This document shows, piece by piece, positions 10,273-57,071 of a DNA stretch of 64,000 nt. The notes under the pieces were generated by a model that made no database searches, was not told where the DNA came from, and was given only the letters and a program-made list of their open reading frames with translations. The position numbers were made by a program, and so were the translations under genes. Source of the stretch: an uncultured Ectothiorhodospiraceae bacterium (GTDB lineage Bacteria > Pseudomonadota > Gammaproteobacteria > UBA9214). The stretch lies in NCBI GenBank assembly GCA_947258515.1, contig CAMYIO010000002.1:686-64685 (forward strand), read 5' to 3'. Positions within the stretch are counted from its first letter, which is position 1. Each line of letters begins with the position of its first letter.

Positions 10273-11155
10273 ATGCGTATTTCAACGGCACACCTGTTTC
10301 AGCAGCAGGTAACCGCCATGCTGGAACAGCAGGCACAGCTTGCCAGGACAGAGCAGCAGCTTGCCAGCGGTAAACGCCTGGTATCGGCAGCGGATGACCC
10401 GGCAGCCAGCTTGCGTAATCTGCAGCTGGGTGACCGCCTGACACAAAATGAACAGTACCTGAAGAACCTCAATACCATGCAGGGACGGCTGGAACTGGAA
10501 GAGGGGGCACTGGCCTCGTCCGTGGATGTGTTGCAACGTGTCAGGGAACTGGCCATACAGGCGCGGAATGCTTCGTTGGGACCCGGGGATCTGAAAGCGA
10601 TTGAAGTGGAGGTGCGTTCCAGTCTGGAGGGCCTGCTGTCCCTCGCCAATACACAAAATGCCAACGGTGAGTTCCTGTTTGCCGGTTATCAGGTTGATAC
10701 ACAACCGTTCAGCAGTGACGGCTCCGGTGGTTTCACCTATAACGGTGATCAGGGGCAGCAACATCTGCAGGTCAGTCAAACACGCCAGATTGCGGCGGCC
10801 GATAATGGCGCGAGCATCTTTCAGGGTGTGGATGCCGCGGCAGGCGGGATAACCAGCAGTTTCGATATTCTGAATGACTTTGCTCACGGCCGATACGCTC
10901 ACTGACATTGATAGTGCAATGAACAAGATCCTCACCCTGCGTGCGGATGTCGGCTCCAGATTGCGTGCTGTTGATGATCAGCGCGCTACCAATGAATCAT
11001 TCGGGCTGGTGCTGGCGAAAGAACAGGCTGACCTGATGGATCTGGATTATACCGAGGCGATATCGCGTTTTAACCAGCAGCTGCTCGCCCTGCAGGCATC
11101 TGAACAGGTGTTTGCAAAAGTCCAGGGCCTGTCTCTGTTTGATTATCTTGGTTAA
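10273..11155 (+). pseudogene. flgL: Flagellar hook-associated protein 3 FlgL, interrupted by a frame change (10273-10905 frame 1; 10874-11155 frame 2)
   Basis: The first ORF carries the FlgL N-terminus (MRISTAHLFQQ...SGKRLVSAADDPAA). The second carries the FlgL C-terminus (LTLRADVGSRLRAVDDQ...DLDYTEAISRFNQQLLALQASEQVFAKVQGLSLFDYL). Removing one T from the TTT at 10879-10881 fuses them into ~293 aa. Confidence 0.8.
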
Positions 11156-11332
11156 TAATCCAGCCACTACCTGATGGTGGCTCGTGGCGTGTGCAGGATC
11201 GCGCTGTGAAACGCTGAATCCCCGCTGGGTGCAAGACACACCCGGTTTACCCTCACCTTAACAGCCTCTTGTCCCCACAAAATTTGTGGTAGTGCGTGGT
11301 TTGTATGTATACTACGTTTGTGGGCAGCAGTT

Positions 11333-11357
11333 AAAAAAAGGCCCCATCCCTGGGGCC
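11333..11357 (-). terminator. Rho-independent terminator (minus strand)
   Basis: On the minus strand, GGCCCC-AGGGAU-GGGGCC is followed by U7 (plus-strand A-run 11333-11339). The sequence after it on the plus strand is not T-rich, so it is minus-specific. Confidence 0.6.
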
Positions 11358-11457
11358 GGTGCGTTCCATGCGATGCTAAACCCTTCCCTGGGCATGTCTC
11401 CCGCGACGGTGGTGTTGGGAGTCCGGTCGGTAAAAGTCCATTTTCCCCTTCCGGCAG
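11333..11457 (-). ncRNA. Candidate sigma-54-dependent small RNA (~125 nt, GGA-rich); hypothetical
   Basis: Bounded by the sigma-54 promoter at 11468-11483 and the terminator at 11333-11357. It holds only a 21-codon ORF and has 8 GGA triplets, two of them in predicted hairpin loops. Confidence 0.3.
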
Positions 11458-11467
11458 GTAAATACAT

Positions 11468-11483
11468 TGCAGGACGTGTGCCA
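11468..11483 (-). promoter_or_regulatory. Sigma-54 (-24/-12) promoter candidate, minus strand
   Basis: Minus strand reads TGGCAC-ACGTC-CTGCA with canonical spacing, in an intergenic spacer. An AT-rich tract (11490-11650) lies upstream. Confidence 0.55.
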
Positions 11484-11563
11484 ATTACCGTTAGTTTATA
11501 AAATATGTAAATAAAACAATAATATACAATATTTCAGCGGGTTGCCGCACCGGTTATGTGATA

Positions 11564-11686
11564 GCGACAATATTTGCAGACCTTATACCCCAGAAATATA
11601 TAAAAAATATATTAAACAATGAGATAAAGAATATCCATGCTAATAATTCGAGTGCGACATTAGTTGCATTCGCAAAAAATGTCGCA
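11564..11686. promoter_or_regulatory. Three copies of a 15-bp motif GCGACAWTWKTTGCR (candidate enhancer-binding sites)
   Basis: The copies are 11564-11578 GCGACAATATTTGCA, 11654-11668 GCGACATTAGTTGCA, and 11671-11685 inverted (GCGACATTTTTTGCG on the minus strand). The last two form a 34-bp palindrome, 11653-11686. Confidence 0.35.
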
Positions 11687-11790
11687 GGCTAAATCGATAG
11701 GATAGCCTCTGCCATGGGGGGAGGGTCAGGGCGTGGTTGAATGCATCGCCCGGGTGGCTTTCAGGCAATGCAGGTGCGGGGTCAAAATGA

Positions 11791-13215
11791 CTAGCCGGCC
11801 TTCCTGCGGCGCACGATACGTTTGTTTAATGCCTGACGTGACATACCCAGAATGGCGGCGGCGGTGCCCTGATTGCCGTTGGCGCGTTGCAGTGCGGCAT
11901 CAATCAGGAAGTCTTCAGCCTCCTTGAGTGTCGGCAGCCGGTCGGGGAACAGGGTGTCGATGTGGGTTGCGCCGCCCCGATCATGCCCCGGGTCGGTCAT
12001 GTCGGCGTCATCAGCGCCTAGCAGTTCACGAAAGCTCTGCAGTGGCAGCACGCCTTTTTCATTGCGCGCGACGGCATCATATATAACGGCCTTGAATTCA
12101 CGTACATTGCCTGGCCAGTGGTAGCTCTGCAGCAATGCCGTCAGTTCACCCGGGACTGAAGGGGCCGGTTTGCCCAGCGACATGGCCGTGTCGTTGATGA
12201 AATTCTCGATGAGCAGGGGGATATCATCATGGCGTTCACGCAGTGGTGGCAGTTCAACCCGGTGTGCGCGCAAGCGGTAATATAAATCCTTGCGGAAGGT
12301 ACCATCCTTGACCAGCTGTTCAACATCGCGGTGGGTGGCAACCACGAACCGGGCGTCACTCTGGTGTGGTTTGTCCGAGCCGACCGGATAGTAGGTGTTT
12401 TCCTGAAAAAGCCGCAACAGCTTGATTTGCGAGGCGGCGCTCAAATCACCGATTTCATCGAGAAACAGGGTGCCGCCTTTTGCGCGCGCCACCAGTCCCT
12501 CGCGATCCTGAATGGCATTGGTGTAGGCGCCCCGCGTGTGTCCGAACAGGCTGTCGGAAAACAGGGTGTCATCGAGCCCTGCTGAATCGATAACAACAAA
12601 TTCCCCGGTGCGGCCCGACAACTGGTGAATTGCGCGGGCGATCAGTTCCTTGCCGGTTCCTGTTTCCCCGGTGATCAACGTCGGTTGCGTGGATCCGGCA
12701 ATGGCGACCAGGTAACGGAAGATGGCAAGCATTGCCGCATCACAGGTGACAATGTCCACAAATGCTTCCTTGTTGCGTACATCGCGTTCAAAGATGCTTT
12801 CTCTGAGCGTCAGTACCTCGTTGCGCAGGGCGCTCATTTCCATGGCGCGCTTGACCGATGAGAGTAGCTGGTCCTCGTCGACCGGTTTCACCAGATAGTC
12901 AAAGGCCCCGATGCGCACACACTTGACGGCAGTATCCAGGTCATTGGTGGCGGTAATGATGATGATCGGAATATCGGGGTATTCGGTGGTGATGTTGTCC
13001 AGCAATTCTTCGCCCGAGATATGCGGCATGGACAGGTCCAGCAGGATCGCGGCAACGGATTGCCTGGCTAGCAGCGGGATCACCTTGCGGCTGTCGTCAA
13101 CCGCCAGCACCGGGTCAATACCGGACGAGCGCAGCAGCATGTCTATGCTGCGCAAGACCTGGGGCTCATCGTCTACGATCAGAACAGGGAGTGTTGTTGA
13201 TACAGTGTCGATCAT
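11791..13215 (-). CDS. NtrC-family response regulator / sigma-54 enhancer-binding protein (REC + AAA+ + Fis-type HTH)
   Basis: REC (LIVDDEP...LLDLSMP...DYLVKP), Walker A GETGTGKE, Walker B LFLDEIGDL and a C-terminal HTH (GNQGTAAAILGMSRQALNKRI). The sigma-54 contact loop reads GAYTNA rather than GAFTGA. Confidence 0.9.
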   Translation of the reverse strand: MIDTVSTTLPVLIVDDEPQVLRSIDMLLRSSGIDPVLAVDDSRKVIPLLARQSVAAILLDLSMPHISGEELLDNITTEYPDIPIIIITATNDLDTAVKCVRIGAFDYLVKPVDEDQLLSSVKRAMEMSALRNEVLTLRESIFERDVRNKEAFVDIVTCDAAMLAIFRYLVAIAGSTQPTLITGETGTGKELIARAIHQLSGRTGEFVVIDSAGLDDTLFSDSLFGHTRGAYTNAIQDREGLVARAKGGTLFLDEIGDLSAASQIKLLRLFQENTYYPVGSDKPHQSDARFVVATHRDVEQLVKDGTFRKDLYYRLRAHRVELPPLRERHDDIPLLIENFINDTAMSLGKPAPSVPGELTALLQSYHWPGNVREFKAVIYDAVARNEKGVLPLQSFRELLGADDADMTDPGHDRGGATHIDTLFPDRLPTLKEAEDFLIDAALQRANGNQGTAAAILGMSRQALNKRIVRRRKAG

Positions 13216-13671: not shown

Positions 13672-14595
13672 ATGGGTGTCAGTCGTAAATTCTGGATGCG
13701 GCACTATTATTGCGGCGTCATTTTCCCAGCATTGCTTGCTGTCTTGTTTTCTTCGGTGCATGCGCACGAATCCAACGGGTACCAACCGGAACGCAAGCCA
13801 CTGCTGGTGGATAGCAGCTGGTTACAGGCGCGGCTACATACACCGGGTGTGGTGATCGTCGACACGCGCCAGCCCGGTGAATACGTGCGCGGACACATAG
13901 CCGGTGCCATCAGCCTGCCTTCAGATGAAACCTTTCATACCCGCCTGGGAGAAAGGGTCGCTACCCAGTCCAGAATTGAATACCTGCTGGGTCGTCGCGG
14001 CATTCGTCGTGATGATCACGTCATTCTTTATGGCTATGATAGCTACCGGGATGCCGCCCGGGTACTCTGGATCCTGGCGCTGTATGGCCACAGCAGCGCC
14101 GCGTTGTTGAACGGCGGATACACTGCCTGGAAAAACGCGGGCCTGCCCATAGACACCCGCATTCCGTTACGGAAACCTGTCAGCTACCGCGCGATTGTCC
14201 GTCACGGTCTCATGTCAACCCGCTTTCATGTATTACTGGCCCTTGAAAATCCGGCGATAGCTATTGTCGATACGCGTGATGCAATTGAGTACCAGGGATT
14301 CGACTCAGTGTCTGATCGCCCGGGCCATATACCGACAGCCTTCAATATCCCTTCAGAACTTAATCTCGAAGTGCGGCAAGGGATACCTTACATAAAGTCG
14401 AGACCGGCACTGCAAGAACTGTACAGGGATCTGGCTGATTACAGCGTGGTTGTCCTGTACTGCAACAGCGGCTGCGAATCATCTACTTCCTACCTGGCAC
14501 TTCGACTCCTCGGCAAGCAGGTCAGTATCTATGATGGTGGCTGGAAGGAATGGAGCAGCGATCCGCGGCTGCCTGTCGAAGTTGTATTGCAATGA
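13672..14595 (+). CDS. Exported tandem-rhodanese sulfurtransferase-like protein
   Basis: Signal peptide (..ALLAVLFSSVHAHE) and two rhodanese-like halves. Only the second has an active-site Cys loop (VVLYCNSGCESS). Its stop overlaps the next gene's ATG (ATGA at 14592-14595). Confidence 0.85.
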   Translation: MGVSRKFWMRHYYCGVIFPALLAVLFSSVHAHESNGYQPERKPLLVDSSWLQARLHTPGVVIVDTRQPGEYVRGHIAGAISLPSDETFHTRLGERVATQSRIEYLLGRRGIRRDDHVILYGYDSYRDAARVLWILALYGHSSAALLNGGYTAWKNAGLPIDTRIPLRKPVSYRAIVRHGLMSTRFHVLLALENPAIAIVDTRDAIEYQGFDSVSDRPGHIPTAFNIPSELNLEVRQGIPYIKSRPALQELYRDLADYSVVVLYCNSGCESSTSYLALRLLGKQVSIYDGGWKEWSSDPRLPVEVVLQ

Positions 14596-16445
14596 ATGAT
14601 GCGGTGCCCGGGATAACTGCAAGACAGGGAATAAACAGTTGGCGCTTTTCACCCGGGATTCGAACGCGCCTTGTCATGGCCATCTTGCTGGTTACGCTGA
14701 CTGTTTCACTGATCGGCCTGCTCATAAACACACAACGCGATTTGGCGCGAATTCGACAGTCGACCGTTGAAACGCTGTTGCAGCGACTGTCTTCCATGAA
14801 GGTGGATTTCGTGAAGGTTATTACCGATCATTCACCGGAGCATGCGGTCGAGCTTGTCGACGAGCTGAATATATACAAGGATATTCATCACATAATACTG
14901 CGCGATAATAACGAGAATGTTGTGTTTCGCTATAACTTTCATGAATCCGAAATCTATGAAATCCCTGATTTTATAAGGCCTGACGAAACATCCGCCATTA
15001 TCTATGGTGATGACAATCTCCTGATGCATCACATGGTGATGTATGGCGGCAAGCGTTATGGCTGGGTCTCCATCTGGGTCGATGCCATCAATATCAATGC
15101 GCAATACAGGGCGTATGCCCTGACAGCGATTCTGTTGATGGTTGGTGCGTTCTTGATCACACTCGTTCTTGCTCTTCTGGCCGGGCATTACTTCAGCCGT
15201 CCTGTTCGTAACCTGGTTGATTTTGTCCGGGTTGTCGGCCATGAGCACGATTTCACACGCCGCCTTGCGGCTGGCCAGAGTGGAGAAATCGGTGAATTGT
15301 ATGATGGTATAAATGCCATGCTTGATGAAATTGCCGTTGCTGAGAATGAAATACTCCGGCTCAATGAGTCACGGCTGCATAATATTATCGAGTCGGCCAT
15401 CGATGGCGTGATTTCTGCCAATAGTGAGGGTGTCATCACCTACTGGAGTCGACATGCGGAAAAAATCTTTGGCTGGAGCAGCGCGGAAGCGCTGGGGCAC
15501 AGCATTGCAGAGACCATAGTGCCCGAGCGCTTGCGGCAGCATTACAAGAATGGCATGCGGCGACTTATAGAATCCAGCGAGGAAATGGTGGTGAATCGGC
15601 GCATGTCCGTGGAAGCGCAGCATCGAGACGGCCATGAATTGCCGGCAGAAATATCGCTATCGGCAATCAGGGAGAATGATGGCTGGATATTCAATGCCTT
15701 TGTGCGAGACCTGAGTGATCAAAAAATTGCCGAGCAGGAGAAGCGTGACATGCAGGCACTGTTACTGCGCAAAGAACGGCTGGCGACGGTCGGGCAGCTG
15801 ACGGCCACGGTGGCTCACGAGTTACGTAATCCGATGGGGACAATACAGAACAGCCTTTATCTGCTGACCCAAAAGCTCGCAGATGTAGACCTTGGCACGG
15901 TCAACCTGGTTAATCGAATTAATCGCAATATAAGACGTTGCGATGCAATTATTACCGAGTTGCTCGACTTTACCCGTGACCGCGAGATTTTACTGGTTCC
16001 GACGCTGATCGATAACTGGCTGGCGAGGCTGCTGGATGGCTATGACTTACCCGAGGGTATCGAACTGGTCCGTAAACTTGTCTCGGCTGCCAGGGTGCCG
16101 CTCGATGTTGCCTATTTTGAATCTGCAGTCGTCAACGTGCTGACTAATGCCGTGCAGGCCGCAATGGAGAAGCACCCGGAAGGCGGTGGCCGGGTCGAGG
16201 TTCGCACGTTGCTTGAAAAGGACCGGGTCGGCGTGGTGATCAGCGATAACGGGCCGGGGATTGCCGCTGCGGACAACCAGCGTGTCTTCGAGCCCTTGTA
16301 TTCCACCAGGGTATACGGGGTCGGACTGGGATTGCCGACAGTCAAAAAGGTCATGGAAAAGCACACTGGCGAGGTGTCTCTGGAAAGCGCTCCTGAAGGC
16401 GGGGCGCGTGTCATCCTGTGGTTGTATATGAATAAATCTTCGTGA
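14592..16445 (+). CDS. Sensor histidine kinase (2 TM with periplasmic domain, HAMP, PAS, HisKA, HATPase)
   Basis: Two hydrophobic segments flank a ~150-aa domain, followed by a HAMP-like linker and a PAS domain (IIESAIDGVISANSEGVITYWS). H-box is TVAHELRNPMG; N/G boxes are NAVQA / DNGPGI / GVGLGL. Start is set at ATG 14592 (ATGA coupling) rather than the track's 14550. Confidence 0.85.
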   Translation: MNDAVPGITARQGINSWRFSPGIRTRLVMAILLVTLTVSLIGLLINTQRDLARIRQSTVETLLQRLSSMKVDFVKVITDHSPEHAVELVDELNIYKDIHHIILRDNNENVVFRYNFHESEIYEIPDFIRPDETSAIIYGDDNLLMHHMVMYGGKRYGWVSIWVDAININAQYRAYALTAILLMVGAFLITLVLALLAGHYFSRPVRNLVDFVRVVGHEHDFTRRLAAGQSGEIGELYDGINAMLDEIAVAENEILRLNESRLHNIIESAIDGVISANSEGVITYWSRHAEKIFGWSSAEALGHSIAETIVPERLRQHYKNGMRRLIESSEEMVVNRRMSVEAQHRDGHELPAEISLSAIRENDGWIFNAFVRDLSDQKIAEQEKRDMQALLLRKERLATVGQLTATVAHELRNPMGTIQNSLYLLTQKLADVDLGTVNLVNRINRNIRRCDAIITELLDFTRDREILLVPTLIDNWLARLLDGYDLPEGIELVRKLVSAARVPLDVAYFESAVVNVLTNAVQAAMEKHPEGGGRVEVRTLLEKDRVGVVISDNGPGIAAADNQRVFEPLYSTRVYGVGLGLPTVKKVMEKHTGEVSLESAPEGGARVILWLYMNKSS

Positions 16446-16538: not shown

Positions 16539-18671
16539 ATGCAAAAGTCGATCAGACTACCCGCCACCAGGTTGAGCCAGCGGGTCCTGGTTGTTGACGA
16601 TGACCCCGACTATGCAAGCAGCCAGGGTGAGTTAATCAGATCTCGTGGCTATGCGGTCCTGACGGTTACCTCGGCACAGGCAGCGCACCAGGCGCTGGGC
16701 ACTTTTTTACCCGAGGTGATATTGATTGACGTTCGCCTCGGTAAGGTCGATGGCGTCGACTTGCTGGCTGAATTGCTGGTACACGAATCATCACCCACCT
16801 GTATCATGATGACCGGTTACGCAAGCATGGAATCTGCCGTCGATGCGCTCAAGGCAGGTGCCTATGACTACCTCACCAAGCCGATCGCCCCTGAAGATTT
16901 ATTCAGTACGCTCGACCGCTGTTTTGAACGCATCAGGCTGGAGGACGAACGTGTACAGGCCCTGACTAAACTCGATAGTCGTAATCGTGAGCTTGAGTAT
17001 GCCAACAAGCGCCTGCAGCGGGTGGTGGAATGCATGGGCGAGCTTAGCCGCAGTCAATCGATGGCCGACCTTTGTCATAAACTGCTGGACAAGGTCGCCT
17101 ACAACATGGGTGCGGAAGGCGGTTCCGTGTACCTGCGCAAGGATGATCAGCTGTTGCTGGTGCATTCACTGGATCCGGGACATGCGCCACCTGTTATTCC
17201 GATGCCACTCAATGCCAACAGCATCCTGGGTCGGGTAATGGAACAGGCAGAGGCGGTACTGGTAGCCGATGCAGCAAGCAGCGATGGACTGATGTTGAGC
17301 GGCTGGTCCGGTTACCGGGACGAGTCACTGCTGGCTTTACCGCTTACCGGTGAGAAGAATAAAATCATCGGGGTGCTCTCGCTACACACCAAGCAGCGGC
17401 CACCTTTTACCCCGCAGGACCGTGATGTGGGGCGGATCTTGCTGGCAGCCAGCAGCGAAACCCTGCGAGCCGTGAAGGCGCTTGAGGATCTGCAGCAGTC
17501 ACAGGCCATGCTGCAGATGATCATGGATTCTAATCCCGACTGCATCAGGGTGCTCGACAAGGACTGCAAGCTGGTGCAAATAAACCCGGCTGGCCTGGAC
17601 TATATCGAGATCGACTCCATCGATCAGGTTGACAATGCCAGCTGCGCTCATGACGTTATTGATCCACCTTACCGCGATGCCTACCAGCGCATTATTGATG
17701 GTGCCTACGAGGGGGAGCCCGGCAGTATCGAGTGCAGCATCACAGGGCTGCGCGGTACCCGTCGCTGGGTCGAGATCAACGCCGTCGCGCTGCGTGATCC
17801 CATGCAGAATATTATGGGTTGTTTGAGTATCTCGCGGGATATCACTGAAGACAAGCGCCTGCTGGAAAAGAACCGTCAGCAGGAACTGCAGCTCATCGAA
17901 ATCAACAAGATGTCGGCCCTCGGCACACTGGTGGCCGGTGTCGCTCATGAGATCAACAACCCGAACCAGACGATCCAGATCAATTCAAGACTGCTTGGCA
18001 AGGTATGGCAGGATACGCACAAGATCCTGGATGAATATGTCAGTATGCATGGAGCAATCAAGCTGGGCGGTTTGCACTACAGCGGCGCGCAGGGTGCGCA
18101 TACAGATCTGATCAATGATATACGAATCGGTGCAGACCAGATCAGGACGGTTGTGGGCAGGCTGAAGACCTTTGCGCGCCCCTACAACGGGATACACGGC
18201 GGTGTTGAACGTGCGCGAATACAGTTGAATGAGGCGGTACAGTCAGCCGTGGCATTGCTCAGGCATGCCATCCGGTCAGGCACGGATAATTTCAGTGTCA
18301 TTCTGGAGGACGCATTGCCTGCGGTTCAGGGCAACCGCCAGCAGCTACAGCAAATAGTCATCAATCTGGTTATGAATGCGCTGGATGCGTTGCCTGACAG
18401 ATCGCGTGGTATCCGCATTGAAACCTGGCTGAATGCAACACAATCCACCGTGGAACTGAGCATTACAGATGAAGGCGTTGGCATGGAAACCGGTGAAATG
18501 AAGCAGATAATGGAGCCTTTCTATACCACCAAGCGTGATCAGGGAGGGACCGGCCTCGGCCTGTCAATCACGCACAGCCTGTTGCAGGAGCAGGGCGGTA
18601 CGATTCATTTTGAATCCGAGCCGGGTAAGGGCACGCGTGTGGTTATCAGTCTGCCTGTTGCAAAACACTAG
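16539..18671 (+). CDS. Hybrid signalling protein: REC + GAF + PAS + HisKA + HATPase
   Basis: N-terminal receiver (VLVVDDDPD...ILIDVRLG...YDYLTKP), a GAF-like segment, and PAS (MLQMIMDSNPDCIRVLD). H-box is GVAHEINNPNQ. The ATPase carries NLVMNALDA / DEGVGM / GTGLGLS. Confidence 0.85.
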   Translation: MQKSIRLPATRLSQRVLVVDDDPDYASSQGELIRSRGYAVLTVTSAQAAHQALGTFLPEVILIDVRLGKVDGVDLLAELLVHESSPTCIMMTGYASMESAVDALKAGAYDYLTKPIAPEDLFSTLDRCFERIRLEDERVQALTKLDSRNRELEYANKRLQRVVECMGELSRSQSMADLCHKLLDKVAYNMGAEGGSVYLRKDDQLLLVHSLDPGHAPPVIPMPLNANSILGRVMEQAEAVLVADAASSDGLMLSGWSGYRDESLLALPLTGEKNKIIGVLSLHTKQRPPFTPQDRDVGRILLAASSETLRAVKALEDLQQSQAMLQMIMDSNPDCIRVLDKDCKLVQINPAGLDYIEIDSIDQVDNASCAHDVIDPPYRDAYQRIIDGAYEGEPGSIECSITGLRGTRRWVEINAVALRDPMQNIMGCLSISRDITEDKRLLEKNRQQELQLIEINKMSALGTLVAGVAHEINNPNQTIQINSRLLGKVWQDTHKILDEYVSMHGAIKLGGLHYSGAQGAHTDLINDIRIGADQIRTVVGRLKTFARPYNGIHGGVERARIQLNEAVQSAVALLRHAIRSGTDNFSVILEDALPAVQGNRQQLQQIVINLVMNALDALPDRSRGIRIETWLNATQSTVELSITDEGVGMETGEMKQIMEPFYTTKRDQGGTGLGLSITHSLLQEQGGTIHFESEPGKGTRVVISLPVAKH

Positions 18672-18903
18672 CCCGTTGATGATCTGGTGCGGTATCGAGA
18701 GACCTGCAGAGACCTGTTGCCGGCGCACTCTCGGCGCGATGCGCGGCCGCGGGTGCGAGTGGCGAGGTTGCTTTCGACCTCTATACCACCGGGATTCCGC
18801 GGCCACGATGACAGGACACGCCCTGACGTCGTCTCAAGTTCTCCATGACCAAGACGATAGCAGAGTACATGGATGCAAGTCTGGCAGAAGGGATATCGCG
18901 CGC

Positions 18904-22353: not shown

Positions 22354-22380
22354 TAAAGTTCCCTTGCCACAGGACGCTAA
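22354..22380 (+). promoter_or_regulatory. Sigma-28 (FliA)-type promoter candidate for fliC
   Basis: TAAAG-N14-GACGCTAA versus the consensus TAAAG-N14-GCCGATAA (6/8 in the -10 element), ~115 nt upstream of the fliC ATG. Confidence 0.45.
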
Positions 22381-22494
22381 GGTGTACGGAGGCGGTGAAT
22401 ATCACACTCCAGTGATATATCTGCCAAATTTGAAACTGGTTCCAGGGAAGGGAATTAAGACCAGTACCTTGCCTGGACAAAAAGGAGATTTACC

Positions 22495-27165: not shown

Positions 27166-27345
27166 GCATTTGGTCGTGAAGCGTAACTGGCCCGTCAGGG
27201 GCCACAAGCCGAATGGATTTGGCGGCTCGAATTGCAGACCGGCAGTAGCCAGGGGATCGCAACTTCGAGTTTAAGGGTGAAGCTGCTGTGACGGTGATGT
27301 TGTAGACCCGTTTGGTATCTTTCATCAGGACAAGGAGGTCGTTTG

Positions 27346-28374
27346 ATGGACAAGCCTGTGTCACAGGTACTGAAAACCGGGCTGATCGCCAGGGACAAGC
27401 GTACCAGGGAACTGGTCACGCTGTCGCGACGCGTAGCGGCTTCGGATGTAACCGTGATGATTAGCGGTGAGTCCGGCACGGGTAAGGAAGTTCTTGCACG
27501 CTTCATTCATGAACATTCGGAACGGGCAGAGGGTCCCTTTGTGGCCATCAACTGTGCCGCAATCCCCGAGAATATGCTTGAAGCCGTCCTCTTTGGATAC
27601 GAAAAGGGCGCCTTTACCGGTGCCTATAAATCCTGTTCAGGAAAGTTTGAGCAAGCACAGGGAGGCACGCTGCTGCTTGATGAAATTACCGAGATGGAGC
27701 TTGGATTGCAGGCAAAACTCCTGCGTGTGTTGCAGGAACGGGAGGTTGAGCGTCTGGGTGGCAAGGACTCGATCCCCCTTGATATTCGTATTCTCGCAAC
27801 GACTAACCGTTGTATGCGTAAAGCGGTAAGCAATGGTCGTTTTCGACAGGATCTTTTCTACCGTCTTAATGTCTTTCCCTTGATTATACCGGCCCTGCGT
27901 GACAGACCGGGGGATATTGTGCCCCTGGCACAGCTGCTTGCCTGTCGTCATGAGCGGGATGCTGGCGGTCCGGAATTTACCCGTGAGGCACAACAGTACC
28001 TGCGGTCGCATGCCTGGCCCGGCAATGTGCGTGAGCTGGAAAATGTTGTCCAGCGGGCATTAATCCTCAAGACGGGAGACTGCATAGAAGAATCCGATAT
28101 CTGCCTTGACGAGGTGATAGAACTGCCAGTATCCGAAACGCGGGAAGCTGCAACCGCGGTTGATAGCGAACAGAATACGGGCCGCTTGCTGGAGCAGGAT
28201 CTCAAGGTCAAGGAGCGGGAACTTATCCTTGCTGCACTGAAAGCCGGCAATGGCAGCCGCAAGGATGTGGCAAATCAACTGGGAATAAGTCCGCGAACGC
28301 TCAGATACAAGCTGGCACGCTTGCGTGACGCGGGAATGGAGATCCCCCGGTCGGCAGGTATGGGGGATGTGTAA
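27346..28374 (+). CDS. Sigma-54 enhancer-binding protein lacking any N-terminal receiver/FleQ domain (AAA+ + Fis-type HTH)
   Basis: Walker A GESGTGKE starts ~40 aa from the N-terminus. It has a canonical GAFTGA, Walker [10 protein letters not shown], and [33 protein letters not shown] lies 7 nt before ATG 27346, and an in-frame stop is at 27295-27297. Confidence 0.9.
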
Positions 28375-33869: not shown

Positions 33870-33885
33870 TGGCATGGGTATTGCT
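33870..33885 (+). promoter_or_regulatory. Sigma-54 promoter candidate upstream of fliK
   Basis: TGGCAT-GGGTA-TTGCT with canonical spacing, in the fliJ-fliK spacer 66 nt before the fliK ATG. Confidence 0.55.
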
Positions 33886-35533: not shown

Positions 35534-35549
35534 TGGCATAAGTATTGCT
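35534..35549 (+). promoter_or_regulatory. Sigma-54 promoter candidate for the fliL operon
   Basis: TGGCAT-AAGTA-TTGCT with canonical spacing. It lies in the 406-nt fliK-fliL spacer, 83 nt before the fliL ATG, with an AT-rich tract upstream. Confidence 0.6.
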
Positions 35550-38872: not shown

Positions 38873-39142
38873 ATGACACCGGAAAGTGTAGTTCTGATAG
38901 GCCAGGAGGCAATGAAGATAACTGCCCTGATGGCGGCGCCATTGCTGGGTTCCGCGCTGGTTGTAGGGTTGTTAATCGGTATGTTCCAGGCCGCCACACA
39001 AATTCAGGAAATGACACTCAGTTTTATTCCCAAGCTTGCTGTGATGGCGCTGGCGCTGATGTTGCTTGGTCCATGGATGATTCACCTGGTGGTGAATTTT
39101 ACGGAAAGGCTTTTTGAAAGCATTCCGGCGCTGATCAGCTAG
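38873..39142 (+). CDS. fliQ: Flagellar export gate protein FliQ
   Basis: 89 aa. ...GLLIGMFQAATQIQEMTLSFIPKL... Confidence 0.95.
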   Translation: MTPESVVLIGQEAMKITALMAAPLLGSALVVGLLIGMFQAATQIQEMTLSFIPKLAVMALALMLLGPWMIHLVVNFTERLFESIPALIS

Positions 39143-41110: not shown

Positions 41111-43216
41111 ATGATGGATACGATGGCGAGATTTGAAAGGTTCAGTCCCCGGATGCTGATCGGGCTGGGTACACCCCTGTTACTGGTGATGATGCTCGGC
41201 ATGATGATATTGCCGCTGCCGACGCCGGTGCTGGACCTGGTATTTACGTTTAACATCGCGCTGGGGCTGATTGTTCTGCTGGTGGCGGTGTATACCCTGA
41301 AACCCCTTGAATTTGCCATCTTCCCGGCAGTATTGCTGGTGGCCACGCTGCTGCGGCTGTCGCTCAATGTCGCATCTACCCGCGTCATCATGCTGAACGG
41401 TCATGAAGGGGGGGATGCCGCCGGGCGTGTCATCCAGGCCTTCGGTGAGTTCGTCGTGGGGGGTAACTATGCCGTCGGCCTGATCGTCTTTGCCATTCTG
41501 GTGATTATCAACTTTGTTGTTGTGACCAAGGGCGCCGGTCGTATCGCGGAAGTCAGTGCCCGTTTTACCCTGGATGCCATGCCCGGCAAGCAAATGGCGA
41601 TTGACGCCGATCTGAATTCAGGTCTTATTGACCAGGACCAGGCACGGACGCGGCGTGAGGAGGTTACCCAGGAAGCCGACTTCTACGGTGCCATGGATGG
41701 TGCCAGCAAGTTTGTCCGCGGTGATGCTATCGCCGGACTATTGATATTGTTCATCAATATAATCGGCGGTTTTGCAGTTGGTACGCTGCAGCACGGATTG
41801 TCGATGGCGGATGCCGCCCATTTCTATACCTTGTTGACGATTGGTGATGGCCTGGTTGCCCAGATTCCGTCACTGGTACTGTCAACTGCAGCGGCCATCA
41901 TGGTAACGCGCGTCTCTGCTGCACAGGATATGGGGCAGCAATTCATCAACCAGCTGACCCGGCACCCGCGGGCATTGGCTATTACGGCCGGTGTGATCGG
42001 GATACTCGGGCTGGTCCCCGGTATGCCCAACGCGGTATTCCTGACACTCGCGGCCGTGATTGGTGGCATAGCCTATTTTCTCATCGTTAAGCAGAAACAG
42101 GCTGCGACGGCAAACACCAGGGAGCAGCAACAGCCGGTTGCCGATGAGCACTCGAGAGAGCTCGGCTGGGATGATGTCTTGCCGGTTGATGTCATTGGTC
42201 TTGAAGTCGGTTATCGCCTGATTCCGCTGGTGGACAAGAAACAGGGCGGTCAACTGATGTCCCGCATCAAGGGTGTGCGCAGAAAGCTTTCACAGGAACT
42301 CGGATTCCTGATCGATCCGGTACATATCCGGGATAACCTGGACCTGGAGCCGGGCGCTTATGTTATTAACCTGATGGGTGTTCCGGTGGGCGAGGCGCAG
42401 ATACATCTCGAGAAGGAACTGGCCATTAATCCCGGACAGGTCTTTGGCAAACTGGAGGGGCTTGCCGTCAAGGACCCTGCCTTCGGGCTGGAAGCGGTGT
42501 GGATTGATGCCGCCCAGCGAGACGAGGCACAGACGCTCGGTTATACCGTGGTTGATGCAAGTACCGTGGTGGCAACCCATTTGAGCAGCCTGCTGCAGCA
42601 ACATGCGCATGAGTTGCTTGGCCATGAAAGCGTGCAGCAACTGCTGGATATGCTTGCCAAGACCTCACCGAAGCTGGTTGAAAACCTGGTGCCGAAAACG
42701 CTGTCACTCGGGGTGGTCGTGAAGGTGCTGCAGAATTTGTTAATGGAGGGTGTGCCGATACGTGACTTGCGCACCATCGCCGAAACATTGGCGGAGCAGG
42801 CCCCCAGGAGTCAGGATCCCGACTTGTTGACGGCCGCAGTGCGGGTCAAGTTGTCACGCATGATTTACCAGAAAATCAATGGCATGGAGGACAATCTGGA
42901 CGCGATGGCGCTGGATCCCAAGTTGGAACAGTTATTGCTTAAATCTATAGAGGGTAGTCATGGCAATGGCCCTGGAATGGAACCCGGGCTTGCCGAGACG
43001 ATGTTGCAATCGCTGCTGGAAAATACCCGGCAGCAGGAAGCGAAAGGGCAGTCAGCGGTATTACTGGTGTCCCCGCAATTGCGGCAATGGCTGGCAGAGT
43101 TTATACGCGGCACGGTTTGCGGACTCAATGTTCTTGCCTACAACGAGTTGCCCGAGAACAAGCAGGTCAGGATCGTGGCAACAATCGGCGGTGAGGCCTA
43201 TGCAATGGCCAGCTGA
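41111..43216 (+). CDS. flhA: Flagellar export gate protein FlhA
   Basis: 701 aa. ...FPAVLLVATLLRLSLNVASTRVIL..., the FHIPEP region (RFTLDAMPGKQMAIDADL) and a large cytoplasmic C-domain. Confidence 0.95.
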   Translation: MMDTMARFERFSPRMLIGLGTPLLLVMMLGMMILPLPTPVLDLVFTFNIALGLIVLLVAVYTLKPLEFAIFPAVLLVATLLRLSLNVASTRVIMLNGHEGGDAAGRVIQAFGEFVVGGNYAVGLIVFAILVIINFVVVTKGAGRIAEVSARFTLDAMPGKQMAIDADLNSGLIDQDQARTRREEVTQEADFYGAMDGASKFVRGDAIAGLLILFINIIGGFAVGTLQHGLSMADAAHFYTLLTIGDGLVAQIPSLVLSTAAAIMVTRVSAAQDMGQQFINQLTRHPRALAITAGVIGILGLVPGMPNAVFLTLAAVIGGIAYFLIVKQKQAATANTREQQQPVADEHSRELGWDDVLPVDVIGLEVGYRLIPLVDKKQGGQLMSRIKGVRRKLSQELGFLIDPVHIRDNLDLEPGAYVINLMGVPVGEAQIHLEKELAINPGQVFGKLEGLAVKDPAFGLEAVWIDAAQRDEAQTLGYTVVDASTVVATHLSSLLQQHAHELLGHESVQQLLDMLAKTSPKLVENLVPKTLSLGVVVKVLQNLLMEGVPIRDLRTIAETLAEQAPRSQDPDLLTAAVRVKLSRMIYQKINGMEDNLDAMALDPKLEQLLLKSIEGSHGNGPGMEPGLAETMLQSLLENTRQQEAKGQSAVLLVSPQLRQWLAEFIRGTVCGLNVLAYNELPENKQVRIVATIGGEAYAMAS

Positions 43217-51984: not shown

Positions 51985-54132
51985 TTATTTTACCAGGTTG
52001 ACAGTGCCGGGCACGTTCTGCGCTTCCAGCATCCTCAGGAGTTCTGATGCCGGTACCGGTTTGCTGAACAGATAACCCTGCACGATATTAACACCCTGTT
52101 GTCTGAAGAAATTCAATTGCCTGACATTTTCGACGCCTTCTACAACCAGCGACAGCTTCAGGCTCTGGGCCATGGCAATAATGGCCTGTGCAATCGTAAC
52201 ATCATCAGTGCTGTCGGGGATCTCGCTCACAAAGGACTTGTCGATCTTTACGATATCGATTGGCAGGCGGCGCAGGTAATTGAGCGATGAATAGCCTGTA
52301 CCGAAGTCATCCATGGCAATACTGATACCCATACACTTCAGCCTGTCCAGTACGGTAATGGCCGAGTCAATATTTTCCATTGCCACATTCTCGGTAACCT
52401 CGAGTTCAGTCATCCTGGCATCCAGCCCTGCTTCCCCGAGCGCTTGCGCGACCACATCTTCAAAACCGGGTCGCGAGAGCTGTGCAGAAGAAAGGTTGAC
52501 AGCAACAGTGAGACCGGTGAATCCGGTGTTGTGCCATTGCTTCAATTGCCTGAAGGCAGTGTTAAGTACCCACTCACCAATGGGAATAATCAGGCCGCTG
52601 TCCTCTGCCACCGGGATGAAGTCGAGTGGGCTGATAAAACCCATCGTCGGGTGTTTCCATCGCAGCAGCGCCTCGACGCCAACGATCATGTTCCTGTTGA
52701 TGTCGACTTTTGGTTGATAGAACAGTCGCAGCTGGTTTCTTTCAACAGCCTTTCGCAGGTTGGTTTCCATGGCCAGTTGTTTGCGAGAGCCGGCGTTCAT
52801 CTCGGCCGTGTAGTAAATCGCCTTGTTACGGCCGAGTTCCTTGGCGCGGTACATACTGATGTCCGCGTGTTTTATCAGCGTCTCTGCATCTGTACCATCA
52901 TAGGGAAATATGCTGATACCGATGCTGGTGGTTATATGCAATTCGTGGCCATTACAGGATATCGGGTCAACCAGGCATTCGATGATTTTCTTTGCGATGC
53001 GTCCGGCATCGGCGGAGCCGCTGATTCTGGGCAGCAGTACCATGAATTCATCGCCGCCGAGACGGGCAACGGTGTCTTCCTCGCGTACACAGTTGTTCAG
53101 CCGGCGCGATATGACACGCAATAACTGGTCCCCGACGGCATGCCCCAGTGAATCGTTAATAATCTTGAAACGATCAAGGTCGAGAAACAGCAGTGCAGCA
53201 TTGGTCTGTTGCCGGCGTGCATGTGCCAGTTCGCTGGTGATGCGGTCATTGAGCAGTATCCGGTTGGGAAGCCCGGTCAGTGCATCGTGGTGTGCATGAT
53301 ACTCCATGCGGTTTGCGACAGACTCGGCCTGCTCCTTGGAGAGTTCGAGTAGCGCATTGGCGCTTTCAAGTTCCCTGGTGCGTTGCGTGACACGTTCTTC
53401 CAGTCTTAGACGATGCTCCCTGAGTTCGTTATCACGCGACTGTATTTCATCCAGCATGGTGTTGAAATCAGTGATCAGGTTGCCGAGTTCATCCTTGCCT
53501 TCGCCGATGACGCGCACTGAATAGTTTTTCCCGGTACTGACCTGACGAGCGATGGCGGATAGTCGCAGCAGCGGGTCGGTGATAATGCGTTGTAACTGTG
53601 CGCCCAGTACGAATGTGACCAGCAGCGAAGCCAGCAATACAATGGCGACGATTCCCAGAAACATCACCAGTCGGTCATGAATGGCTTCCATATCCGAGCG
53701 CAGGTAGATAAAGCCAATAAGGTCTCCTTCATAGAATATGCGGGTATACAACTCGACATAATCGCTCCAGAAGAGAATGTTCTCGTTTTGCAGATCGGAT
53801 GCCGGTAAATCCAGGTTCAGGCCGGGCTGGATATAGTGTGCGAATTCCTTCTCATCGCTGTCATAGATGGCAGCTGCCTGGATATGTTGCTGTGAATTGA
53901 GGAAACTGAGCGTTTCCTGTGCCGCAACCGGGTCGGAGAACAGCAGTGCTGCACTGCTGTTGGCCGCGATGATGTCTGCCATCGTGCCAAGGTTGTCGCT
54001 GACAGTTTGCTGGGTATTGATGCGGTCACTGGTAATAAAGGCAATACTGGCTAGCAACAGCGACACGCTACTGATACTGACAATCAGTATTGTCAGTTTC
54101 GTGCGTATGGATATGTCCCGGAGATTCCACAT
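51985..54132 (-). CDS. Membrane sensor (CHASE8-like periplasmic domain + HAMP) GGDEF-EAL protein
   Basis: 2 TM flank a ~150-aa domain, then HAMP, GGDEF (intact GGDEF with an REED I-site) and EAL ([28 protein letters not shown]). Confidence 0.9.
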
Positions 54133-54141
54133 AAGGAGGCC

Positions 54142-54711
54142 TTAATTACCTCCCGTTACGCTGATCGCCAGTGACAGCAATTTCGAACTGATGTTCAGAC
54201 CGGCATTATTGGCAGCCCCGGCGTTAATCCTGAACCTGACCTTGTTATGGACCAGAATGAACTGGATGATGCCACCTTCTTCAATGAAGCCGGCTGCGTC
54301 ACTGACGGTCAGTACCGGTTGTTCGCTGAGCAGCAACAGGACCTCGATGAGCTCGGTATTTTCACCGATATAGACAAGCTCGCAGTCATCAAGCATGGTG
54401 AGACTGCTGAGGCGCCTGATCACCAGCGTCTGCTTTTTAACTGCCTTGCCTGCAAGATTGTCCAGCTCTGTGCCAAAAGGATCTGTTCCGATCACGCAGA
54501 GTGTGAACTCCGTGCGGTCCTGTAGCGTTGCTTCCGGCCAGGTTACAAAGCGGGAGAAGTTATACAGAAAGGCTGTCTTCACCCGGTACTCCGAAATTTG
54601 CGTTTCACCCGACATGACATGGGCTGGAACAGACAACAGCAACACTGTCAGCAGGCAGCGAACCAGGCGGTGCAGGCCGTGCAACAGTGACATGTCGTGT
54701 CGTGATGTCAT
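54142..54711 (-). CDS. YfiR-like (DUF4154) periplasmic protein
   Basis: Signal peptide, then YRVKTAFLYNFSRFVTWPE...FTLCVIG...VLTVSD..GF...GGIIQF.L..NKVRF.IN...A...GL.ISSKLL. ATG 54711 avoids overlap with the upstream receptor gene. Confidence 0.75.
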   Translation of the reverse strand: MTSRHDMSLLHGLHRLVRCLLTVLLLSVPAHVMSGETQISEYRVKTAFLYNFSRFVTWPEATLQDRTEFTLCVIGTDPFGTELDNLAGKAVKKQTLVIRRLSSLTMLDDCELVYIGENTELIEVLLLLSEQPVLTVSDAAGFIEEGGIIQFILVHNKVRFRINAGAANNAGLNISSKLLSLAISVTGGN

Positions 54712-54721
54712 CAGTATGTTT

Positions 54722-56827: not shown

Positions 56828-57071
56828 TCTGGACGCTCCTTGCAACCCCGTTGTTGTTACTAACAGGCTGAAATACTGGCGATTAACCCCGTGTCCCGGT
56901 CGTAATCCCGGCACGCAGGCAATGCGCAGCAAAGCTGCTTAAAGGAGTATCGGCGTGACCGTAATCAACCTTAGATGTTGATTAATAGTCAATAATTTTC
57001 CGCAAAGGATCTATGGCGGAGTTTCGGAGGTGCTTGCAGGGAGGGCGGACAGGCCCTGACTGGGGGAGGGA

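Follow-up and report, generated by a model that had tools for sequence, protein, structure and literature searches.

A candidate sigma-54-dependent CsrA-sponge RNA beside an NtrC-type regulator gene in a gammaproteobacterial flagellar cluster

Small RNAs whose sigma-54-dependent genes lie beside that of an enhancer-binding protein (EBP), for instance Qrr1 beside LuxO and NrsZ beside NtrC, act by base pairing. In Pseudomonas, the NtrC-type response regulator CbrB activates the sigma-54 promoter of CrcZ (PMC8871633), a repeated-motif RNA that serves as a protein sponge. The characterised gammaproteobacterial sponges CsrB, CsrC, RsmX, RsmY and RsmZ are all under BarA/UvrY-GacS/GacA control and sigma-70 promoters (PMC7652899). 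The subject of this text is a predicted non-coding RNA gene in the spacer between flgL and the gene for an NtrC-type EBP, within a flagellar cluster carried on a 64-kb stretch of DNA from an uncultured gammaproteobacterium (64,000 nucleotides (nt) of contig CAMYIO010000002.1; hereafter the window).

The element is read here as a sponge RNA of the Csr/Rsm type that would titrate CsrA, would be transcribed with sigma-54 under the adjacent two-component system, and has flagellin translation as its probable output. This reading of the sequence is given a probability of roughly 0.68. A preliminary description of the stretch had proposed an EBP-controlled regulatory RNA embedded in a flagellar cluster and possibly acting through a CsrA-like protein, and that proposal is supported in silico by conservation of the spacer, by palindromes upstream of the promoter, by a csrA gene on the same island in two relatives and by a conserved fliC leader. 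Four rival explanations are weighed below, and all of them are less well supported. Coordinates are collected in Table 1.

The RNA gene in the window and in its relatives

The comparison covers 14 distinct loci of one clade, collected from contigs encoding orthologues of the activator, from one genome scan and from one metagenome scan with an RNA pattern that is independent of the promoter. At 65–100% EBP identity, these loci share a common order: the EBP gene, three palindromes, an AT-rich spacer, the sigma-54 promoter, the GGA-hairpin RNA and a convergent flgL. In the alignment of this spacer that the preliminary description proposed, all 13 further loci keep promoter, terminator and loop GGAs, with compensatory changes in the stems; this comparative evidence is what convinces. 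The pattern scan of metagenomes recovered only these clade loci and one unrelated GC-rich RNA, and no orphan copies. Homologues of the activator fall into ~16 clusters at 75% identity or above and one at 65%. The RNA was not found beside EBP homologues at 58% (L007 and L008, in a DAHL-kinase/MauG context) or beside those at ~50% (L011-L076, from Desulfobacterales and others, in unrelated contexts), and a match to covariance model R1 in L027 (E=0.005) proved spurious on inspection.

One contig of the collection, CAVYIJ010000009.1 (L010/L004/L106), bears the record title "uncultured Halobacteria archaeon". Its bin is probably mislabelled or chimeric, since both a flagellar cluster of bacterial type and the gammaproteobacterial module described here lie on the contig.

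In the window, model R1 matches positions 11331-11457 with 128.9 bits. The start of the RNA is placed about 11 nt after the -12 GC and is inferred to within ±3 nt. Every relative in which the RNA is fully covered (L092 aside) has two units in tandem, with a total length of ~235–275 nt. Each unit ends in GGCCCC-ANGGAY-GGGGCC, and a U-tract follows directly after the second unit only. The model detects units 1 and 2 in the clade loci with E values from 1e-38 to 1e-6, no match to unit 2 being obtained in L089 and L102, and it gave no extra copies in the rest of the window or in the ±10-kb neighbourhoods of four relatives. The length of ~125 nt given in the preliminary description is right for the window, whose RNA is a deletion derivative, and falls short of the tandem form that is fully read in the relatives.

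The window unit has five predicted hairpins, H1 to H5. The stems of H1 show compensatory changes, from CCGG/CCGG to CCAG/CUGG and from GAAAA/CUUUU to GCAGAAA/UUUCUGC, while the loop GGA is invariant; across units the loop reads (A/U)GGA, and in unit 2 H1 often contains two inner hairpins. The stem of H2 becomes CUCCUG/CAGGAG in L092 and CUCCCGG/CCGGGAG in L004, three pairs having changed on both sides (helix 3). H3, which across units reads GCCC-AGGGAA-GGGY, takes the compensated form GUCC-ACGGAA-GGAC in L004, and its GGA is retained in 21 of the 22 units. H4 occurs with four unrelated stems, which in the relatives include UGC-AAGGA-GCA, GUGC-AGGGA-GCAC and CUUC-AGCGGAC-GAAG, and the loop GGA is always retained. 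Finally, the H5 hairpin is invariant, with the loop A-N-GGA-Y in every unit. This hairpin and its U7 tract had been described as a terminator at 11357-11333, an assignment that both the sequence and a terminator scan bear out, and H5 is the only terminator-like site on the minus strand between flgL and the activator gene.

Stems therefore vary and covary while the loop GGAs stay fixed. In an alignment of 22 units with 92% of cells paired, both partners have changed in 13 of the 26 pairs; shuffles gave 4.0±1.5 (0/500), and slid partners 3–7. Because this alignment is fitted to the structure, and because the sequences in it are closely related and the units paralogous, these counts do not represent independent events. 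RNAalifold, applied to the two-unit alignment, joined the terminator-type hairpin of unit 1 to its identical counterpart in unit 2; this was taken as an artefact of the duplication, and the local hairpins were used instead.

The window RNA holds eight GGA triplets in 127 nt. The preliminary description had the number right and the composition-based expectation, "roughly 2", slightly low, as it comes to 2.7. It had also placed a GGA in the terminator loop and another in the UGGAC loop of H1, and both are present; with H3 (AGGGAA) and H4 (AUGGAAC), four window hairpins carry GGA in an apical loop, that of the terminator being AGGGAU. GGA is enriched in every homologue, the relatives having 11–16 copies, of which 7–11 lie in hairpin loops, above shuffles in most cases. 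Rules for CsrA sites derived from SELEX and from CsrB call for short stems and six-base A-N-GGA-N loops (PMC7652899), and the short-stem hexaloop hairpins of the clade RNA fit them.

Next to no weight is given to the explanation that the locus encodes a small protein. Candidate open reading frames (ORFs) do exist: the 105-amino-acid (aa) ORF at 11167..11484 and the 21-codon ORF mentioned in the preliminary description are both present, the latter (AUGGAC...UAG) as the first ORF within the predicted transcript, and a 51-codon ATG ORF occupies 11312..11467, its ATG being upstream of the predicted start site. However, neither the 105-aa ORF nor any other in the RNA has a family match, and no ORF in the RNA is conserved across relatives. 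Start codons are lost (AUGGA becomes AAGGA, and the ATG of the 51-codon ORF becomes ACG or TTG), and no frame survives among close relatives, given indels of 1–2 nt and a unit whose 148 nt are not divisible by 3.

In the interval from the RNA terminator to the flgL stop codon, a further block of ~75 nt (~11255-11330, minus strand), CCCACAAACG.AGTATACAT.MAAACC...ACCACAAATTTTGTGGGGA, is found in 12 of 13 loci, L004 being the exception. It could belong to flgL as a 3′ element, serve as an antisense promoter or form part of a different RNA.

Table 1. Positions of the RNA gene, its control elements and associated genes in the window
Feature	Position	Strand	Evidence
flgL, convergent with the RNA, frameshifted (two ORF pieces)	10273..11155	plus	23-nt deletion relative to L001
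Predicted non-coding RNA, ~125 nt, one-unit version of a tandem two-unit RNA, 8 GGA	11333..11457	minus	covariance model R1 and covariation
H5, intrinsic terminator GGCCCC-AGGGAU-GGGGCC + U7 (GGCCCCAGGGATGGGGCC + T7 in DNA), GGA in loop	11333..11357	minus	terminator scan
H4, short GC-AUGGAAC-GC hairpin	11361..11371	minus	loop GGA kept, stem varies
H3, GCCC-AGGGAA-GGGU hexaloop GGA hairpin	11380..11393	minus	compensatory change
H2, CUCCC/GGGAG stem with GGA in its 3′ strand, conserved loop AACACCACCGUCGC	11398..11421	minus	compensatory changes
H1, outer CCGG/CCGG stem around an A-U hairpin with UGGAC loop	11423..11454	minus	compensatory changes
Sigma-54 (-24/-12) promoter TGGCACACGTCCTGCA	11468..11483	minus	exact match, kept in relatives
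AT-rich spacer with conserved motif ATTGTTTTAT	11484..11562	n/a	conserved block in alignment
Putative enhancer, three TGCRAC-N4-GTYGCA palindromes	11563..11686	n/a	pattern scan and 13-locus alignment
NtrC-type response regulator (receiver (REC) domain, AAA+ sigma-54 activator domain, HTH_8)	11791..13215	minus	NCBIfam, Pfam
Rhodanese-like protein	13672-14595	plus	divergent from activator; family searches
HAMP-PAS histidine kinase	14550-16445	plus	family searches
Hybrid REC-GAF-PAS kinase	16539-18671	plus	family searches
Site of the relatives' csrA	18672..18822	n/a	blastn, L107 against the window
fliC leader	22354..22494	plus	sigma-28-like promoter, GGA hairpin, Shine-Dalgarno (SD) sequence

The promoter and its presumed activator

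The promoter of the RNA has the exact -24/-12 register that had been described for it, and it is the sole zero-mismatch match to TGGCAC-N5-YTGCW in the window, where ~0.1 would be expected by composition on our own estimate. Sites with one mismatch number 16, against 7.6±2.7 in shuffles, and several of these (TGGCAT-N5-TTGCT) precede flagellar operons. In each of the 13 other loci TGGCAC-N5-CTG(C/T)A stands at an unchanged position, and the element is kept over 65–100% EBP identity while the adjoining spacer DNA diverges freely.

The putative enhancer lies 80–220 bp upstream of the promoter. Its palindrome at 11653-11668 is the window's only perfect match to TGCRAC-N4-GTYGCA, and the flanking sites at 11671-11686 and 11563-11578 have two mismatches each. 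The three blocks are positionally conserved in an alignment of 13 loci. No second cluster of this kind was found elsewhere in the window, L105, L106 or L107, flagellar sigma-54 promoters included. The AT-rich spacer between enhancer and promoter is a possible DNA-bending region, to which integration host factor (IHF) may bind; a by-eye check found no good match to the IHF consensus WATCAANNNNTTR in it. Upstream of the RNA (11484-11800), no sigma-70-like promoter was found on the minus strand, nor was any GacA/UvrY box (TGTAAG-N6-CTTACA) within three mismatches near this interval. As read from the sequence, palindromes, AT-rich spacer and -24/-12 element are arranged as in an EBP-dependent promoter that has an activator of its own.

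Given this layout and an invariant neighbour, the adjacent NtrC-type regulator is the obvious candidate and is presumed to activate the RNA promoter. Its gene adjoins the RNA in 13 of the 14 loci, and in the remaining one, L103, the contig stops just upstream of the enhancer. The closest solved structures are those of NtrC1 and LuxO rather than FlrC.

It is also conceivable, if unlikely, that the sigma-54 RNA is real and is driven by the flagellar, FlbD-like EBP encoded at 27343-28374 instead of the adjacent regulator. The RNA gene sits inside the flagellar cluster beside flgKL in all loci, several flagellar operons of the window have sigma-54-type promoters, and the window has this receiver-less FlbD-like EBP and no FleSR pair. 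However, the three conserved palindromes are found at the RNA promoter only and not at the flagellar sigma-54 promoters, which also differ in flavour (TGGCAT-N5-TTGCT, as opposed to TGGCAC-CTGCA for the RNA). Moreover, it is the NtrC-type gene that adjoins the RNA, as in LuxO-qrr1 and CbrB-crcZ, whereas the FlbD-like gene does not.

A very unlikely explanation dispenses with an independent functional RNA altogether and regards the hairpins as the conserved 3′ region or terminator of the activator mRNA, or as a repeat-rich spacer, with a promoter-like sequence present by chance. Transcription of the activator gene might run on into the RNA, since no terminator is predicted to follow the activator stop codon ahead of the RNA, and an unremarkable fold energy would suit this explanation too. 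Against it stand the retention of the -24/-12 element in a diverging spacer, the covariation of the stems, and the combination of palindromes and AT-rich DNA that is typical of EBP-dependent promoters.

CsrA, the flagellin leader and the weight of the evidence

Two relatives carry csrA on the same island as the RNA gene. It encodes a 59-aa protein at L105:4089-4268 (EBP 81% identical) and a 60-aa protein at L107:3902-4084 (EBP 92% identical), in both cases between the genes for the hybrid kinase and a pentapeptide-channel protein and ~6 kb from the RNA gene. The two proteins score 101.7 and 109.1 bits, respectively, against an NCBIfam equivalog cut-off of 73, and the L107 protein shares 69% identity with E. 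coli CsrA. A perfect TTGACT-17-TATAAT promoter precedes the L107 gene, and there are GGA motifs at the SD of that gene. Comparison by eye shows visible sequence differences between the L105 and L107 proteins, an unusual feature for CsrA. The window has 151 unrelated nt in place of the 435-nt csrA segment.

The fliC leader of the window begins with a sigma-28-like promoter, TAAAGTTC-N11-GACGCTAA, at 22354-22380. It continues with an AGGGAA hairpin (22436-22464) that has the loop sequence of H3, a UGGAC, and the SD AAGGAG (22483-22488), ~35 nt downstream. The four GGA motifs, SD included, that the preliminary description had counted here are confirmed, and the hairpin, UGGAC and SD are kept between the window and L105. 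A hairpin plus SD is the architecture of known CsrA-repressed leaders (PMC7652899). Judged by its architecture, the fliC leader is a likely CsrA target, and the most likely one nearby. A tblastn search of the window found no FliW-like ORF, although this was a weak test.

The linkage to csrA bears on another unlikely explanation, that of a sigma-54-dependent, base-pairing small RNA of the Qrr/NrsZ kind in which the GGAs are incidental and the seed is the conserved CUCCC or the CCACCGUCGC segment. The EBP-adjacent sigma-54 small RNAs Qrr1 and NrsZ do pair with mRNA, CUCCC is complementary to an SD sequence, and most loci show next to no variation in the 14-nt H2 loop AACACCACCGUCGC, which recurs in unit 2. 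Yet that loop sequence is lost in L004 and L092, where the GGA loops persist, and CUCCC sits inside a covarying stem. Repeated units with 4–5 GGA hairpins each are a trait of sponges, not of seed-type small RNAs; in addition, two relatives have csrA linked to the locus, and Rfam returns no Qrr match.

If the RNA is a CsrA sponge, a mechanism can be proposed. A signal would be sensed by the divergently encoded rhodanese-like protein and the PAS histidine kinase, perhaps joined by the hybrid kinase; the PAS kinase would then phosphorylate the adjacent NtrC-type response regulator. This would bind the three TGCRAC-N4-GTYGCA palindromes and activate sigma-54 RNA polymerase at TGGCAC-N5-CTGCA. The transcript, ~125 nt long here and ~235–275 nt in relatives, would fold into short hairpins with A(N)GGA in their loops, and these would titrate CsrA dimers off mRNAs. 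Flagellin (fliC) mRNA would be the most likely nearby target, by way of the AGGGAA hairpin and the GGA-containing SD.

Several points weigh against the sponge reading. All sequences are metagenomic and all evidence is computational, the covariation included, with the fitted alignment on which it was counted. No CsrA-like ORF is present in the 64-kb window, and no csrA lies within ±10 kb in L106, where the context differs. Dinucleotide-preserving shuffles of the window unit lead one to expect 5.0±1.4 GGA (P=0.034), so that the enrichment is real but modest, and for loop-located GGA alone P is 0.076. The minimum free energy is not lower than that of shuffles (z=+0.19), and thermodynamic stability is therefore not evidence; with modest GGA enrichment and an unremarkable fold, the case from the lone window sequence is suggestive, not compelling. 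Rfam yielded no match at the gathering score in the whole window and noise only at E≤10 on the window locus.

A further point concerns the activator. In 15 of 16 orthologues at 75% identity or above, the sigma-54 contact loop (residues ~225-235) reads GAYTNA, not GAFTGA; one orthologue has GAYTSA and the 65% relative GAFTHA. HrpS works with a tyrosine in this loop (GAYTGA; PMC3105312). The N substitution counts both as a caveat on the activator and as a curiosity. The GAYTNA loop co-occurs with the CTGCA -12 element, where TTGCA would be usual.

The state of the window copy belongs here as well. The window DNA is 97.7% identical to L001, and compared with L001:4759-5033 its RNA gene lacks one unit. 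Since the missing 148 nt fall between unit ends identical over 40 nt, the window RNA is a one-unit recombinant, and the junction is consistent with recombination or with repeat collapse in assembly. The deletion in flgL is near 10884, between CGGCA microrepeats; FlgL of L001 is intact at 301 aa, and the window gene may be a pseudogene in the population or an assembly error. Relative to its closest relatives, the window strain thus has half the RNA, a frameshifted flgL and no csrA at the ancestral site. With one unit missing and flgL frameshifted beside it, the circuit may be decaying in this population, or the differences may be assembly artefacts.

A broader proposal, tentative and rather doubtful at present, is that the clade possesses a self-contained, flagellum-dedicated Csr circuit. 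In it, a sulfur-related signal, picked up by the rhodanese-like protein and the PAS kinase, would drive the GAYTNA regulator to transcribe the tandem sponge, which would titrate the product of the island's csrA paralogue and thereby set flagellin translation, as an RNA-based replacement of the FliW switch and the first Csr sponge under sigma-54 in place of GacA/UvrY. A sigma-54- or RpoN-dependent Csr/Rsm sponge was not found in the literature, the coverage of which was incomplete, so that this is no proof of novelty.

Gene neighbourhood and comparison with known systems

On the window's plus strand, flgJ, flgK and flgL precede the RNA and end at 11155. The order of the sensor genes (Table 1) is also found in relatives. 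Past the hybrid kinase come genes for a pentapeptide/ion-channel protein, an HDOD protein and a DnaJ-domain protein, then fliC, fliD and fliS. Beyond fliS are the receiver-less FlbD-like activator gene and fliF through flhA, flhF and flhG. No FleSR/FlrBC pair was found in the window. Sigma-54-type promoters on the plus strand at 905-920, 33870-33885, 35534-35549, 39051-39066 and 42924-42939 precede the flgB, fliK, fliL/M, fliR/flhB and flhF operons, respectively. FlhA has its closest cultured relatives in Ectothiorhodospira, at ~70% identity, and the lineage is that of an uncultured gammaproteobacterium.

The N-terminal region of the RNA-linked kinase weakly matches the NCBIfam entry "sensor histidine kinase, YfiR-like protein-associated" (79 bits against 194). 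At 51985-56932 (minus strand) there is a cluster for a TonB-dependent receptor, a YfiR/HmsC-like protein (DUF4154) and a CHASE8-HAMP-GGDEF-EAL protein.

Two other loci were met in the scans. The first, L096:380-760 and L099 (Ga0307428_1011215 and Ga0315541_1021084), is GC-rich and packs at least eight hairpins, their loops reading CAUGGAUG or CAUGGACG, into ~350 nt. By its appearance it would be another sponge of the CsrB kind, unrelated to the clade RNA; it has no Rfam match, and a regular-expression scan found no sigma-54 promoter. At L007:5637-5760, downstream of the 58%-identical, paralogous EBP in its DAHL-kinase/MauG context, there is a short ORF (MKWTKPAYQDKRFGFELTM...) behind a sigma-54 promoter; the ORF resembles PqqA-like precursor peptides.

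Among known systems, the RNA resembles RsmZ, RsmY, RsmV and CsrB (Rfam clan CL00106) in several respects. These are non-coding RNAs of 120–350 nt with short hairpins and A(N)GGA loops, one GGA hairpin doubling as Rho-independent terminator. Further likenesses are units duplicated in tandem, a link to motility and, presumably, the titration of CsrA dimers. Of the Csr/Rsm traits, loop GGAs and a stand-alone non-coding unit with a Rho-independent terminator were found in silico. In contrast, no clan model matches (CsrB, CsrC, RsmX, RsmY, RsmZ, RsmV, RsmW), the best being RsmV with a weak, sub-threshold 16.7 bits on unit 2 of L001, against a gathering score of 100, and this resemblance is one of architecture, not of membership. 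The preliminary description had named CsrB, RsmY, RsmZ and Qrr as families to scan for; none of these models matched, Qrr not even at E≤10, and membership in them is not borne out. Going by these comparisons, the RNA is a family absent from Rfam. Its control differs too: the window RNA has a sigma-54 promoter with NtrC-type palindromes, whereas known Csr/Rsm RNAs have a sigma-70 promoter and a GacA/UvrY box, and its gene is in a flagellar cluster beside the presumed regulator. With no clan match and no GacA-box/sigma-70 promoter, it is not filed as a classical Csr/Rsm member. If the sponge reading is true, a sigma-54 sponge with a dedicated NtrC-type system would mean that another signalling input can be coupled to the Csr output module. 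It would also bring a family that Rfam lacks and a naturally occurring GAYTNA variant of the contact loop, paired with a CTGCA -12 element.

The FliW-CsrA-flagellin switch of Bacillus, Campylobacter and spirochaetes offers a second parallel, in that a CsrA antagonist (and, in relatives, csrA) lies in the flagellar cluster near flgKL and flagellin, and the flagellin leader has a GGA hairpin and a GGA-containing SD. However, the antagonist here would be a transcriptionally controlled RNA, not the FliW protein, and the CsrA of the clade is of the short gammaproteobacterial type (59–60 aa), without the C-terminal FliW-binding extension. A position in the flagellar cluster together with its own csrA copy parallels fliW-csrA of Firmicutes and spirochaetes and suggests convergent control of flagellin translation.

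The traits of EBP-adjacent sigma-54 RNAs of the Qrr, CrcZ, GlmY and NrsZ type are likewise present, namely a -24/-12 promoter at the right distance, a neighbouring NtrC-family gene and enhancer repeats. LuxO-Qrr1 of Vibrio is similar in having an NtrC-type response regulator beside a sigma-54-dependent small RNA of ~100 nt, with TGCA-type palindromic enhancers. In contrast, Qrr RNAs are Hfq-dependent, base-pairing and without GGA-loop repeats, and qrr1 is divergent from luxO. In NtrC-NrsZ of Pseudomonas aeruginosa, the sigma-54/NtrC-dependent small RNA is encoded just downstream of the activator gene, consists of tandem stem-loop units and affects motility. NrsZ differs in that it acts by base pairing (rhlA), is processed into units and has no GGA-loop architecture. 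CbrB-CrcZ shares with the locus a repeated-motif sponge RNA transcribed from a sigma-54 promoter under an NtrC-type response regulator, and the cbrB gene is immediately upstream of crcZ on the same strand, the arrangement seen here. The motifs of CrcZ are A-rich and titrate Hfq/Crc, not GGA motifs for CsrA; the two RNAs have no sequence similarity, and the sensor kinase is of another type. By analogy with these systems, the best-supported reading is that the RNA would be functionally like RsmZ or CsrB, and in its regulatory architecture like CbrB-CrcZ or LuxO-Qrr1.

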